From contig JBDKJD010000001.1 in the NCBI GenBank assembly GCA_039796775.1, positions 5,874 through 69,873 on the forward strand: a stretch of 64,000 nt of DNA, in the 5' to 3' direction. The translations under genes and the position numbers were made by a program. Under the pieces are notes generated by a model. The model had not been told where the DNA came from. It searched no databases and worked only from the letters and a program-made list of their open reading frames with translations. Source of the DNA: Candidatus Parcubacteria bacterium. Lineage in GTDB: Bacteria > Patescibacteriota > Minisyncoccia > Phycocordibacterales > UBA5272. Positions within the stretch are counted from its first letter, which is position 1. Each line of letters starts with the position of its first letter. Positions 1-16,880 of this stretch are shown piece by piece.

Positions 1-183
1 TATAGCTTTGTTAGCTTCATCTTCTGATGCCATTTCTACGAATCCAAAACCTTTTGATCGGTTAGTCATCTTGTCAATAATGATTTGAGCAGAAACAACG
101 TTTCCTGCTTGTGAGAAGTGATTCTTAAGATCATCGTTAGATGATGCGTAAGGGATTCCACCCACGTACAATTTTGTATTCAT
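1..183 (-). CDS. RNA-binding protein with an RRM domain. The N-terminal 61 aa are in the window and the gene continues past coordinate 1.
   Basis: The reverse complement translates to MNTKLYVGGIPYASSNDDLKNHFSQAGNVVSAQIIIDKMTNRSKGFGFVEMASEDEANKAI. It shows the RNP-2 motif (LYVGGI) and RNP-1 motif (KGFGFVEM), with an ATG at 181-183 on the minus strand. Confidence 0.8.
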   Translation of the reverse strand, partial: MNTKLYVGGIPYASSNDDLKNHFSQAGNVVSAQIIIDKMTNRSKGFGFVEMASEDEANKAI

Positions 184-329
184 TTACGTTTTAACTAAAC
201 TTACTAAGAATAAGAGCCGAGAATCCAAGCTATACCCGTGAGACACGAACACAAATAGGATGAGGTTCTTACTAAAGAAAGTATACCACATCCTTTGGAT
301 AAAGTCCACCCTTTCTGGGGATAGGTTCT

Positions 330-363
330 CCACCGAAATGCAACTGCTTTCTTTTTTGATAAT
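330..363. repeat. Copy 1 of a ~36-nt conserved upstream element (ccaccgaaatgcaactgctttcttttttgataat).
   Basis: It is about 85% identical to 2218-2252. Both copies lie ~20-25 nt upstream (minus orientation) of a sigma70-like -35/-10 pair that drives a minus-strand gene. Confidence 0.5.
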
Positions 364-710
364 TACGGCCATTTGTAGATGATGTTTACTCACCCTCATT
401 TACTACAGGTGCGTTTCTACTCTGTCTCTCTCTGCGCTCGTAGAGAACTAATAGCACCACATTGGTTTACTATAGCGGTGCAGTTCTCGATATATGGTCC
501 CCAGATCAACTCTAAATACTTCTATGCTATATGTTTTTGCTTGTGCTCGTATAGGCACAAGACACAGATTCTGTCTTTGTGTTTTTCTTTAAATTTTGTA
601 AATATACTCTTTTTTATTTTTTGAATTTGGTATAACACTAATACAATTTTGAATTAAAAAGAGAATTTTCATAACGCTGTGGAATATAAGATATAATCTA
701 TTGGGTTGCG

Positions 711-1049
711 TTACTCAAACAGTTTTGCTGTTTGTCCAACATCTTCCTTTCCTTGGTTTTCAATATAACGTTGTACGGTTTGTTCATCTACGTCGACCGT
801 GGATACAAAGTATCCATCTGACCACACTCCGTCTGTGCCATAGCAGAGATGTTTGAGAAATGGGAATTTGGATTTGATGTTTCTTGAGGTGTTTGTTTTA
901 AGTAGCCTCACCACACTACCCACTGATACTTGTGGTGGTATAGAGATGAGTATGTGTACATGATTTATGTCGTGATTGATTTCTTTGATTCTTAGTCGTG
1001 GGTAGTGTTCTGTGACTTCATAGAATTTTTGTTCAAGGTATTCTAACAT
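711..1049 (-). pseudogene. tnpA: IS200-family transposase TnpA, truncated at the N terminus and probably inactive.
   Basis: The HUH motif HVHILISIPP and the C-terminal Tyr region (GYFVSTV) are present. The in-frame extension upstream of the ATG (..WGCSVTQPLPFR M..) still resembles the TnpA N terminus but is closed by a TAA with no start codon, so about 35 residues are missing. Confidence 0.6.
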
Positions 1050-1142
1050 GCGGAAAGGAAGAGGTTGGGTGACGCTACATCCCCAGGCTGACGCCGTAGG
1101 GTATTATGCGCGAATAAAAAATCATTACAACAAAAGAAAAAC

Positions 1143-1178
1143 CCCACGATTTACCTCGCGGGGTTATATTACTTACTT
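1143..1178 (-). terminator. Rho-independent terminator after the 292-aa gene. It may also be the left-end hairpin of the IS200 remnant.
   Basis: On the minus strand aaccccgcgagg-taaatc-gtggggtt is followed by tttcttttgtt. Confidence 0.5.
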
Positions 1179-1190
1179 TTATTTTCTTGA

Positions 1191-2069
1191 TCATGTAAAT
1201 GACGCCGCCCGCATCATCTTATCATAAACCTCTATGGGTTCAAGGTTTGAGAAGATGCGTCGTGCATACACATCCATCACAAGCCCTTGACGTGCAATCT
1301 TTTCGAGATTATCTTTATACTCCTTTGTGCCGGGCCGTTTAAGTGCAAAGCTCCATGTTGCAGGTTTCAATACACCTACCCCACCCCAACGGATAAACTC
1401 ACCCTGTTGTTTAGACGCACGGAAGTAGGCTTCAATGTCCTCCATGCCTGCGAGTGGAACCTCGCCATACTCAAGAGTACTTACCGTGGTTTTACCATCT
1501 CCATTACATTCAGGATTCATGCCACCAATCTGGTTAAGTAGTTTAAGATTCCAAATTGCACATGTATTTTGTGCAAATCTCCACTGAAGACGCTGGTGAT
1601 ACTGGTTGCGTAAGTACCCAACAAGCTCCAGCGCTTGGGCTTCCATGTAGTACAACATAAGATAAACCATATGCCCTGAAAGATCAATCTCGGGACTCCA
1701 AACAAGTAGTTTGTCTGCATTACGCTCGTTTGCAACTACAATACCAGCATTGATAGCAGTAGCTGACCCAGCATTAAGACCCCAACTATGAGACACTACT
1801 GGTACAAGTTTTCCACTAGCAATTTCTTCAGGAAAGAATTCCTGAAGACGAGATGTCGTTGGGGTTTCACCCTCTCGCAATTCTTCTGCATACTTTGAAC
1901 CAAGTTCAGCACAAGTTACCACAACAAGCCCCTTAAGTTCTGGAGGAGCAGTGTCAAACAATTTTTTAATTGGAGCAACAAGCCCCTTATCACACTTCTC
2001 TTTATTAAAAGTTGCAAAACTTGCACCACCTTGGAATGAGCGAGTAACAGCAAAGAGATTTGTATTCAT
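1191..2069 (-). CDS. Hypothetical protein of 292 aa, not recognised.
   Basis: It is a long ORF with AAAGG seven nt upstream of the ATG and a terminator downstream. Its GC content is higher than the surrounding DNA. No family is assigned. Confidence 0.6.
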   Translation of the reverse strand: MNTNLFAVTRSFQGGASFATFNKEKCDKGLVAPIKKLFDTAPPELKGLVVVTCAELGSKYAEELREGETPTTSRLQEFFPEEIASGKLVPVVSHSWGLNAGSATAINAGIVVANERNADKLLVWSPEIDLSGHMVYLMLYYMEAQALELVGYLRNQYHQRLQWRFAQNTCAIWNLKLLNQIGGMNPECNGDGKTTVSTLEYGEVPLAGMEDIEAYFRASKQQGEFIRWGGVGVLKPATWSFALKRPGTKEYKDNLEKIARQGLVMDVYARRIFSNLEPIEVYDKMMRAASFT

Positions 2070-2113
2070 GAGGAACCTTTCAAGATTGAAACTACTTTAA
2101 AGAATGATTATAT

Positions 2114-2154
2114 GGATAATACCGCTCTTTGTGAGACAAAGAGCAGTATTATCC
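2114..2154. promoter_or_regulatory. 17-bp inverted repeat (ggataataccgctcttt-N7-aaagagcagtattatcc), a candidate operator in the leader of the 292-aa gene.
   Basis: The arms are near-perfect palindromes with 1 mismatch. It lies 45-85 nt upstream of the ATG at 2069. Confidence 0.4.
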
Positions 2155-2217
2155 ATTGTCTATTATCTATAGTATCACTTTTATATGTAATAGTCAAGTA
2201 AATGTAGTGGTAAATTC

Positions 2218-2252
2218 CCTACCGAAATGCAATTACTTTCTTTCTTGATAAT
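2218..2252. repeat. Copy 2 of the conserved upstream element (cctaccgaaatgcaattactttctttcttgataat).
   Basis: It is followed (minus orientation) after ~20 nt by ttgact-N17-tactat and then the 292-aa gene. Confidence 0.5.
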
Positions 2253-2539
2253 GGAGGAACTTTGGTAATGATATCACTTTCAAGTGATGCTTCGTAAGTA
2301 TTCTTGTAACTAATTTATTTTATATACTTATGGTTTAAGGTAAACAGCGTTGATTGTAACTCTTCCCATGTAACAGAACTTTCTGATAGACTCTATAATT
2401 ATCATATAAGGATGTAGATTGAAAGTACTAAAAGATGAGAGAAGTGTGTCTGGGGAGTTATTACCGAATAGGTTTATTGGGTATAATTTAATACAATTAC
2501 AACCCAAAAGAAAATTTTCTGGGGATAGATACCCTTTTT

Positions 2540-4048
2540 CTACAAGTTACCGAGATCAAGAGTATGAGTGATACCAAGCTCTTTTACGAATTCATGTACG
2601 TGAGAAACTACGATAACCACACCATTAAAGTCATGAACAGCCTTCTGTATAGCAGGGATATGGCGGAAGTTAATATGATTAGTAGGCTCGTCTAAGATAA
2701 GGAGTCCTGGTTGCTGTAATCTCAAATAGGCGAACATAAGTAATCCTTTTTGACCTTCGGACAGGAGACCTATTTTTGAGGCTAATTGTTGACCACCTAA
2801 GAGCATGCTTGCAGCGACGCTACGTAATTTTTGATCATCTACTCTTTCGAAGACCTTAGCTAGCTCTTGATATGGACTCTTTTCAAAATCTAATGTAGAA
2901 AAGTCCTGACGATAATATCCAACTTTTATACCATCTTTGATAGAGACACCCTCTTCTTTTCGTTTTGCTATTTTTTCTAACAGTGTAGTTTTACCAATTC
3001 CATTTGGACCGATGATGTGTAACTTATCTCCTTTACGAAGCTCGAGGTTCACTTTTCTTGTCACCGGTTTATCATTATGAAGTACAGACACAGAAGAGAA
3101 TTGAACTATAACGCTCCCGATGTCTTCTTGGCAGGGGATAGTGAATGGTTTGATTGTCTTGTCTTCCTTACGCACTTCGGTCTTACTATCTTCTAATTCT
3201 TCCACTTCTTCTTTTAATTTTGCTGCGAGCTTGCGCATCTTCCCACCTTTTAGGGCGAAGAAGTTCACTTTATCTTTGTTGTCTTGTATTTCTTTTTCTA
3301 ATTGCGCATTTGCTCGTTCTGCTTTTTCGACAGCTCTTTTAATCTCTTCTACTACTTTGAAATAGTTCCCGACATATTGTTCTACTTTGTAATCCTGAGC
3401 ATTCACATACAATACCCCATGAGTGAATGAATTCAGGAACTGCGCATCGTGCGAGATAACAAGTACAGTTCTGTCATATTCTTTCATAAAACGAGTCAAA
3501 AGATCAATCCCTTGTTTGTCGAGATTGTTCGTCGGTTCATCTAAGAGTAAGAGATCTGGTTCTTGGATGAGAGCTTGAGCAATAAGTAATCTCCCTTTTT
3601 GTCCACCTGATAATTGTCGTATTTCTTTATCTAATGAAACAGAGAGTTCTACTTGTTTGAATATTTTCTCGGCTCGCTTGTCTATATCATATATTTTGGT
3701 AGTAAACGGTTCTTCCAAAAACTCTCGCACTGTCATTTCCCATTTTTTGTGAGGGATGAATTGTTTAGCGATCGCTATTTTGAGATCCTTTTGGAAAATA
3801 ATTCTCCCTTCTTCTGGTTTCAATTCATTCATAATAAGAGAGAAGAGTGTAGACTTACCAGCCCCATTCTGACCCATCAATGTGAACTTTGCTCCTTTTC
3901 TTAATACGAAGTTGCTCTCTACGAGAATCGGTTTGTTTTCTGCATATTTAAAAGTCACATCGTCAAAACGAAGTATTACTTCACCTGAGAGTGGATTGAT
4001 TTTTTCGGCCATATAACTATAGAAATTCTTAAGATTAAGCTCAAGCAT
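2540..4048 (-). CDS. ABC-F family ATPase with two ABC domains and no transmembrane region, EttA/Uup-like.
   Basis: There are two Walker A motifs (GQNGAGKST, GPNGIGKTT), two signature motifs (LSGGQKGRL, LSEGQKGLL) and an inter-domain linker. Confidence 0.85.
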   Translation of the reverse strand: MLELNLKNFYSYMAEKINPLSGEVILRFDDVTFKYAENKPILVESNFVLRKGAKFTLMGQNGAGKSTLFSLIMNELKPEEGRIIFQKDLKIAIAKQFIPHKKWEMTVREFLEEPFTTKIYDIDKRAEKIFKQVELSVSLDKEIRQLSGGQKGRLLIAQALIQEPDLLLLDEPTNNLDKQGIDLLTRFMKEYDRTVLVISHDAQFLNSFTHGVLYVNAQDYKVEQYVGNYFKVVEEIKRAVEKAERANAQLEKEIQDNKDKVNFFALKGGKMRKLAAKLKEEVEELEDSKTEVRKEDKTIKPFTIPCQEDIGSVIVQFSSVSVLHNDKPVTRKVNLELRKGDKLHIIGPNGIGKTTLLEKIAKRKEEGVSIKDGIKVGYYRQDFSTLDFEKSPYQELAKVFERVDDQKLRSVAASMLLGGQQLASKIGLLSEGQKGLLMFAYLRLQQPGLLILDEPTNHINFRHIPAIQKAVHDFNGVVIVVSHVHEFVKELGITHTLDLGNL

Positions 4049-4695: not shown

Positions 4696-4938
4696 TTATT
4701 TTCTGAAAAGTCGTCGCAGTTTTTTATTGAACTTCTCATAAAGATGATCTAACTTTGGATATTTTTTAACAAGAGAGAGAATTTTATTCTCTAAGGTTAC
4801 ACTTTCAAAAGAGAGAATAATCACCCCAATAATCAAAAATACTGTACCGTGCACTATAGGAAATATCATTCCTAGTACTCCTAAAATAACAAATATTGAG
4901 CCGAGTGTGATATGTAGTAATTTGCGTAAGTAGTCCAT
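4696..4938 (-). CDS. Small membrane protein with two transmembrane segments, possibly YbaN/DUF454-like.
   Basis: It is 80 aa, with hydrophobic helices followed by a basic C terminus. Confidence 0.45.
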   Translation of the reverse strand: MDYLRKLLHITLGSIFVILGVLGMIFPIVHGTVFLIIGVIILSFESVTLENKILSLVKKYPKLDHLYEKFNKKLRRLFRK

Positions 4939-4949
4939 ACTATGTGTCT

Positions 4950-5528
4950 TTATTCTGACAGTATTAAATCCTTAATAAAAATACTTTTTGTGCTACTCCC
5001 ATACACAACGCGTACAGTGCTTGAAGCATAAGAGAGAGACGTGGGTGTGGTAGTACCTAGCTTTATAGCATTAGCTCGAGCATAGGTGAGATCAGAGAGT
5101 CCGTACGCTAAGGCTACATAATATGTAGTATTTTCTTGTGTTACAAAGATAATATCCTTAAAACTATCATCATTAACAAAAGCTTTAACTGAAAGCGTGC
5201 TAGTAGCCGTAAGAGTATCCTTGAATGTTAAATATGTCGAGGTGCCAGACACGATGTATTGACCATCAAGGGATGTGAGGGAGGGTACTTTCTCTATATT
5301 ACCAGCTTTAAGTTGCATATCTTCACGAACAAAGATTTTAGTCTGTGTCTTACACAAATAAGGATAATCTTTTGGGACCACAAAACGAGCCTTAACACAC
5401 TCTTCATAAGAAGAGACATCGGTGAATGTTGTTTTAAGTGACACAAAAAAACTATACGCAACAAAAGACGAGACTGTAATAGTAATTAAAAAGATCTTAT
5501 TCTTATTGAGGAAATGATAGAGAGGCAT
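4950..5528 (-). CDS. Hypothetical membrane-anchored protein rich in Ser and Thr.
   Basis: There is an N-terminal transmembrane segment and a T/S-rich ectodomain. Confidence 0.5.
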   Translation of the reverse strand: MPLYHFLNKNKIFLITITVSSFVAYSFFVSLKTTFTDVSSYEECVKARFVVPKDYPYLCKTQTKIFVREDMQLKAGNIEKVPSLTSLDGQYIVSGTSTYLTFKDTLTATSTLSVKAFVNDDSFKDIIFVTQENTTYYVALAYGLSDLTYARANAIKLGTTTPTSLSYASSTVRVVYGSSTKSIFIKDLILSE

Positions 5529-16681: not shown

Positions 16682-16880
16682 GTGAGTGAGAGCTTACGCC
16701 CTCCATACCCGTTTCCAGGTACGGCCGTTCAAGACAAATCCCACATGATGGGTTTTTTATTTTGAACGGGCTTTTCACCATGCCAATATTGCTATTGGTT
16801 TAGGCTACTTGTATTCAGTTGTATCTATATAATAACGTAGAAAATGACAAAATAAAAGAAATTAAGTAGTATACAGGGCA

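Follow-up and report, generated by a model that had tools for sequence, protein, structure and literature searches.

A sequence repeated upstream of two promoters in a Parcubacteria genome lies within a 2,188-bp lineage-specific insertion

We analysed a stretch of 64,000 nucleotides from the metagenome-assembled genome of an uncultured Candidatus Parcubacteria bacterium (GenBank assembly GCA_039796775.1, contig JBDKJD010000001.1, positions 5,874 to 69,873 of the forward strand), referred to here as the window. Near its start a short sequence occurs twice in the same orientation, once upstream of the promoter of a gene for a protein with an RNA recognition motif (RRM) and once upstream of the promoter of a gene for a 292-aa protein. 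Both copies are contained in a 2,188-bp insertion that separates the RRM gene from the ABC-F ATPase gene and is bounded by a short target-site duplication; copy 1 is the terminal sequence of the insertion. The reading we favour, as somewhat better than an even chance, is that the two copies are the conserved right ends of two small non-coding units, E1 and E2, that bracket a cargo in a compound-transposon-like insertion. The apparent motif of two promoters is then the boundary sequence of acquired DNA, which corrects a plausible but wrong regulatory reading.

Insertion, empty site and target duplication

Relatives were six loci found through the closest ABC-F homologues, one at 97% protein identity (L011) and five at 85% (L012–L016). 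In 6/6 loci the RRM gene comes next after the ABC-F gene, across a spacer of 152–155 nt, and the 292-aa gene and the IS200 copy that lie between them in the window are absent. The alignment of L011 with the window has two junctions, both containing (A)CCTATCCCCAGA, and no homology between them: on the ABC-F side homology stops at ...ATCTATCCCCAGA (window 2529..2517), and on the RRM side it restarts with ACCTATCCCCAGA... (window 326 downwards). The junction sequence is present once in L011 and twice in the window, where it forms a direct repeat, TTTCTGGGGATAG(GT/AT), at 312–326 and 2515–2529 (13/13 positions identical, or 14/15). The sequence duplicated by the insertion is the 9–15-bp target (A)CCTATCCCCA(GAAA), not the 36-nt element from which the study started. 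The end of copy 1, at 326, coincides exactly with the point where homology to L011 restarts, and copy 2 is situated 240 nt inside the other end; both are within inserted DNA. L011 is the closest relative and the more distant L012–L016 are also empty, so parsimony favours an insertion in the lineage of the window. An arrangement identical to that of the window is found in another assembly (Logan SRR35185531; L001/L002).

An initial annotation of this DNA had offered two explanations for the repeat: a shared activator or UP-like site (discussed below), or insertion of the segment between the copies with duplication of promoter-proximal sequence. It had also proposed a comparison with relatives without the 292-aa gene, and that comparison supplied the six empty sites. 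The second explanation was right in that a segment was inserted, but the limits are ~327 and 2514, not copy to copy, and the segment contains both copies. Taken literally, with the two copies as the footprint of a duplication of native RRM-promoter-proximal sequence, this explanation is barely credible. An insertion between the ABC-F and RRM genes did occur as it supposes, but the empty site in L011 has no trace of the 36-nt element or of any block-like sequence, so that the empty-site alignment already contradicts it; the real footprint is the 9–15-bp duplication, and copy 2 is internal to the inserted DNA.

The flanks of the insertion differ in their identity to L011. The transcribed region of the RRM gene (window 1–280 versus L011:4766–5045) is 98–99% identical (5′ untranslated region [UTR] 95/96, coding sequence 180/183); on the same contig identity falls to ~84% on the ABC-F side and to 87% in the promoter. 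L012 matches the UTR at only 64%, so the high RRM-side identity to L011 is not general conservation, and from these alignments the segment looks like a recent recombination tract ending ~45 nt from the insertion. We considered, and dropped, an age argument in which the repeat copies (76–87% identical) had diverged before the insertion since the L011 flanks are 97% identical: identity to L011 is just 84% on the ABC-F side, and the 97–99% on the RRM side is a local anomaly. The hexamer CCCCAG/CTGGGG occurs 5 times in the first 2.6 kb (315–2527), compared with 0.36 per kb across the window; two of these sites belong to the target duplication, another to the IS200 left-end hairpin, and each unit has one in its interior. 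At the left junction (2523..2503) the duplicated CCCAGAAAA pairs with the element's TCTTTTGGG in a hairpin that is now a terminator-like structure after the ABC-F gene.

Repeat blocks and the units E1 and E2

The initial annotation had described a ~36-nt element, ~85% identical between 330–363 and 2218–2252, and both sequences are present at these positions letter for letter. The core is real (33/38 positions identical at 326–363, 86.8% by blastn; 28/32 at 332–363), but the actual similarity is longer, extending ungapped over 58 nt at 76% identity (326–383 versus 2215–2272). The conserved core of this block includes ACCGAAATGCAA; the block is not strictly A+T-rich. The annotation had suggested a search for further copies, and in the window there are only the two: a degenerate 32-nt pattern with up to 3 mismatches has exactly two sites in 64 kb (0.00 expected from 100 shuffles), and an nhmmer profile of both copies finds no third copy, the next match having E = 2.3. 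Absent from that annotation were the junction direct repeat, a second block of similarity, promoter-like hexamers on the plus strand and the comparative context.

The second block is found where each unit begins on the minus strand. The match of 671..625 to 2519..2475 (GAAAATTYTCTTTT..AATTGTATTA..TTATACC.AAT) has a local score of 21, compared with 12.5 ± 1.8 in 1000 dinucleotide shuffles (maximum 20.5; 0/1000 reach it). The left end of E1 is a real junction because the right end of the neighbouring IS200 is cut exactly there, within its hairpin loop and ~22 nt short of the terminus; the IS200 ends were judged against the intact copies L022–L025 (88–94% nucleotide identity for L022–L024). E1 (~671..326, ~346 nt) and E2 (~2519..2215, ~303 nt), both read on the minus strand, are two-block units in direct orientation with common ends of ~46 nt on the left and ~58 nt on the right. 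Their interiors are unrelated (score 9.5 versus 12.7 ± 3.1 in shuffles), and E1 and E2 therefore did not arise by replicative duplication of one element. The minus-strand order is duplication, E2, promoter, hairpin, 292-aa gene, terminator, IS200 relic, E1, duplication (Table 1).

Within the 58-nt block no clear dyad or direct-repeat substructure could be read from the sequence. As single-stranded DNA the blocks are unusually unstructured (186–196 of 200 shuffles fold at least as well), which rules out ends of the hairpin type, among them IS200/IS605 ends, attC sites and repetitive extragenic palindromic (REP) elements. Compared with shuffles, the interior of E1 (388–672) has excess folding (plus strand, z = -2.9; minus strand, z = -2.1) and contains several local hairpins, whereas that of E2 folds no better than expected (z = 0.1). 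Translation of E1 and E2 in all six frames gave no peptide with a Pfam match.

Table 1. Features at the insertion and in the adjoining genes (window positions)
Feature	Position	Strand	Remarks
Lineage-specific insertion, ~2,188 bp	~327..2514	-	missing in six related loci
Target-site duplication, RRM side	312..326		plus strand TTTCTGGGGATAGGT; length anywhere 9–15 bp
Target-site duplication, ABC-F side	2515..2529		plus strand TTTCTGGGGATAGAT; 14/15 identical to RRM-side copy
Repeat copy 1, right-end block of E1	326..383	-	terminal 58 nt of the insertion; abuts target duplication
Repeat copy 2, right-end block of E2	2215..2272	-	internal to the insertion
Left-end block of E1	625..671	-	GAAAATTCTCTTTT..AATTGTATTA..TTATACCAAAT; starts where IS200 right-end homology breaks off
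Left-end block of E2	2475..2519	-	starts at first base of the insertion; overlaps last bases of the target duplication
Cargo gene, 292-aa protein	1191..2069	-	no Pfam family; predicted GT-A glycosyltransferase-like fold
Cargo-gene promoter-like site	2169..2197	-	TTGACT-N17-TACTAT, extended TG; resembles promoter of L007 orthologue
Hairpin in cargo-gene 5′ UTR	2112..2156	-	21-bp stem
Intrinsic-terminator-like hairpin after cargo gene	1140..1165	-	IS200 left end starts just downstream
Degraded IS200	672..1122	-	left end intact; 115-nt internal deletion removes TnpA N-terminus
Truncated IS200 Y1 transposase open reading frame	711..1049	-	
Native RRM-gene promoter	280..308	-	TGGACT-N17-TATACT, extended TG; conserved in relatives without the insertion
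RRM-protein gene, 5′ part, exits window	1..183	-	RNA recognition motif
ABC-F ATPase gene	2540..4048	-	adjoins RRM gene upstream in all relatives

We propose that E2, the cargo and E1 were inserted as one piece of 2.19 kb into the 29-nt gap that separates the ABC-F stop codon from the RRM -35 hexamer in the empty site, an event that duplicated 9–15 bp of target. The cargo is made up of a dead IS200 and a glycosyltransferase-like gene that has a promoter and a terminator of its own. A recombinase or transposase acting in trans may recognise the conserved ends, and the outer ends (E2 left, E1 right) would have served to move the block in the manner of a compound transposon with directly repeated flanking elements.

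Several observations weigh against this proposal. Apart from the dead IS200, whose IS200/IS605 family does not duplicate its target, the insertion contains no transposase or integrase. Terminal inverted repeats are absent from the insertion as a whole and from E1 and E2 (the best alignments of the left end with the reverse-complemented right end are no better than shuffles). The left-block similarity is marginal without the 5 nt that overlap the duplication (26/500 shuffles reach it). No third copy of either end block is present in the window or in the 31 fetched loci, and exact-pattern scans of genome, metagenome and viral collections, which do not include the source genome and would miss diverged copies, gave no real copies. 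A family defined by two members is thin evidence.

Individual matches in these scans were rejected. The genome-contig scan with ACCGAAATGCAANTNCTTTCTT gave one match, in Omnitrophota, that has no extension and is attributed to chance; its translation carries a GNHD motif, which we take to be a metallophosphoesterase signature. None of the 5 matches in metagenome contigs extends past the pattern. The viral-contig scans gave 0 matches for the right block and 87 for the left-block pattern, none of which fits the profiles. The whole insertion had no blastn match among plasmids and phages, and a literature search on mobile elements of the candidate phyla radiation (CPR) found nothing pertinent.

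A broader claim, unlikely on present evidence, is that E1 and E2 represent an undescribed family of small (~300–350 nt) non-coding CPR mobile elements without inverted repeats. Such a family would have distinct left (~46 nt) and right (~58 nt) ends, produce a 9–15-bp duplication and mobilise neighbouring genes in compound form. It may also favour landing ~16–18 nt upstream of a -35 hexamer; the two right ends observed here both have a promoter at this spacing.

The main rival to the compound-transposon-like reading, which we consider distinctly unlikely, is site-specific integration. Here the 9–15-bp repeat would be an att core and the blocks arm regions, that is, binding sites for a recombinase or accessory proteins, in a small integrase-less element mobilised in trans and possibly built of two units by accretion. 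Tyrosine and serine integrases characteristically leave direct repeats but no inverted repeats, the core is identical at both junctions (13/13, or 14/15), copy 1 directly abuts it, and the end blocks are linear and unstructured, as protein-binding arms would be. However, no integrase is encoded within or beside the insertion, and the target is neither a tRNA gene nor any known att site. Accretion, moreover, predicts a core and a left block after the internal right block, but 1.5 kb of cargo intervenes there, and only 7/15 positions agree with the core in the sequence that follows copy 2.

The block might instead be a relic of coding sequence, such as the 3′ end of a lost transposase gene or a tiny open reading frame, but we judge this very improbable. 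On the plus strand the frame F(S/P)TEMQLLSFLI is open in both copies, with three core differences synonymous, and the minus strand reads ..PLS(R/K)KK(V/A)(I/V)AFR with conservative changes. The substitutions are too few for a test, however, with six frames to choose among; the minus-strand frame is broken by stops, and the plus-strand ATG has no Shine-Dalgarno sequence. To the missing Pfam matches noted above can be added that a search of the 31-aa frame peptide against 1.8 billion proteins found only a beta-propeller repeat protein, a spurious match made through its repeats.

Promoters next to the two copies

The good -35/-10 pairs that the initial annotation placed downstream of the copies were both found, each with an extended TG, but the spacing differs from the ~20–25 nt given there: at both copies exactly 18 nt separate the end of the 58-nt block from the -35 hexamer. 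Counted from the inferred transcription starts, the block occupies about -53 to -110. The RRM promoter is native. At the same place L011 has TAGACT-N17-TATACT and L012–L016 have TCGACT-N17-TATAGT, with the repeat absent upstream. The repeat is likewise absent upstream of the 292-aa orthologues in seven loci (five distinct sequences; among L004–L010 and L032–L035). A 13/16 match to TCTCAAGACAGAAAGT in L007, at a different distance from the -35 hexamer, was judged to be chance in A/G-rich sequence. With the RRM promoter native and the repeat absent at orthologues, an ancestral regulatory site for either gene is not supported. What has changed at the RRM promoter is the DNA upstream of about -52, which is now E1 sequence.

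The first explanation in the initial annotation, an upstream activator or UP-like site that co-regulates the RRM and 292-aa genes, fares poorly on these data, and we regard it as improbable. It would account for the identical distance from block to -35 at both promoters, for the quality of both promoters with their extended TG, and for an in-register identity beyond the block of ~45% through the promoter (background 25–30%). This extra identity, however, sits mainly in the -35 and -10 hexamers themselves. Since the target gap offers only 29 nt, a matching 18-nt offset would arise by chance about 1 time in 30; the equal spacing is a by-product of the insertion and less striking than it looks. 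The block also lies farther upstream than -40 to -60, lacks a clear dyad or direct-repeat substructure and exists in only two copies, and both the RRM promoter (six related loci) and the 292-aa orthologues occur without it. A secondary regulatory role of the block at either promoter is a minor possibility.

Promoter-like hexamers are also present on the plus strand within the block (TTGATA-N16-GATGAT at 356–383 and TTGATA-N16-AATGAT at 2245–2272). E1 and E2 could accordingly be plus-strand transcription units, for example small RNA genes, in which the 58-nt block is the promoter and the 46-nt block a common 3′ end; we hold this to be decidedly improbable. The TTGATA-N16-RATGAT hexamers are conserved despite divergence of the spacer (6/16 identical), and the excess folding of the E1 interior is stronger on the plus strand. 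But the E2 interior has no such excess and is unrelated to that of E1, there is no canonical terminator at the 3′ blocks and no Rfam match, and the position of the blocks exactly at the insertion ends would be left unexplained.

Cargo, neighbourhood and resemblance to known systems

All local genes (ABC-F, 292-aa gene, IS200 TnpA relic and RRM) are on the minus strand, and G+C is 43–48% over the 292-aa gene region, compared with ~31–40% in the flanking windows. The alignment-based AlphaFold2 model of the 292-aa protein has a pLDDT of 95, and its best Foldseek matches in the PDB are RmlT, TarS, WrtF and mannosylglycerate synthase (E ~1e-6, TM ~0.5); the sequence profile had no match in the PDB. 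The model predicts a GT-A fold, which identifies the protein as cargo and not as a recombinase. The predicted fold agrees with the neighbourhoods of the 292-aa orthologues, which contain glycosyltransferase, CofD-like and UDP-glucose dehydrogenase genes, and the glycosyltransferase-like cargo probably has a role in the cell envelope.

The 5′ UTR of the cargo gene carries an inverted repeat (21-nt arms, 95% complementary, 3-nt loop) at the place where orthologues carry a conserved leader. This leader, of 130–150 nt, occurs upstream of the 292-aa orthologues on four distinct Patescibacteria contigs (L032:~2855-3000, L035:~2860-3000, L004:~4850-5000 and L010:~4795-5000) and reads ATCGTTCTTTGAATC...CCGACTTTACATTGTCGGCAAGGCTCAAC.CTGTGAGGAAAAGAACTCTCAAGAATTTGYGCAT...; it is missing from the window's own 292-aa gene and from L007. 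RNAalifold folds it into an invariant closing stem, GUUCUUU/AAAGAAC, and two hairpins with compensatory changes, and one leader sequence has a 58-nt loop insertion. Searched against Rfam, the leader has no family at the gathering threshold. It is a candidate cis-regulatory RNA for the glycosyltransferase-like gene.

The IS200 relic has close relatives elsewhere. Apparently intact copies of ~585 nt, encoding a 146-aa TnpA, are present in varied contexts on several Parcubacteria and Nomurabacteria contigs (L022–L031), with TnpA proteins 82–88% identical to that of the window relic. This IS200 family appears to be active, or recently so, in CPR bacteria. Farther along the window, LOOT RNA (RF03000) has a full-length match at 16688–16806 on the minus strand (85.7 bits versus a gathering score of 46.4); no Rfam family matches window 1–2700 at gathering and E-value thresholds.

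The insertion adds a further case to a known class of events, ordinary genome plasticity through mobile DNA, with unusual flanking units. CPR and Parcubacteria have small genomes in which mobile elements are reportedly scarce, and the locus provides a clean, boundary-resolved gene gain in such a genome. The flanking units would deserve a name only if more copies appear; in that event a new element family would be defined by its end blocks, which would also serve to trace gene flow in these uncultured bacteria.

Among known systems, class I activator sites and UP elements resemble the block in being placed upstream of two -35 hexamers at the same distance. In contrast to such sites, the block is absent from orthologous promoters and was carried in by the insertion, and for an UP element it is too far upstream and not strictly A+T-rich. 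Integron attC sites differ in that the blocks form no hairpin and the neighbourhood contains no integron integrase. An IS200/IS605 element is present inside the insertion as a degraded IS200 (Y1 transposase, typical left- and right-end hairpins), but it is a passenger whose ends (~1122 and ~672) differ from those of the insertion.

Miniature inverted-repeat transposable elements (MITEs) and other non-autonomous derivatives of insertion sequences, including the IS200/IS605-derived palindrome-associated transposable elements (PATEs), are like E1 and E2 small and without open reading frames, with conserved ends and variable interiors. Unlike MITEs, E1 and E2 have no terminal inverted repeats; unlike PATEs and IS200/IS605 ends, their blocks lack subterminal hairpins and a target duplication is present. 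Only the two units have been seen. Integrase-less att-flanked elements, such as cis-mobilizable elements (CIMEs) and accretion arrays, share with the insertion short-core direct repeats, no inverted repeats and no internal recombinase; the insertion departs from them in having no core repeat at the internal junction, no nearby integrase and an intergenic, promoter-upstream target. Compound transposons (Tn9 with IS1, or the pseudo-compound transposons of IS26) differ in that the flanking units here are ~300–345 nt, non-coding and alike only in their terminal 46/58 nt, with no inverted repeats and no known cognate transposase. What the insertion has in common with them is its overall plan: two related elements in direct orientation bracket a passenger gene, and one target duplication surrounds the whole unit, which is absent from related genomes.

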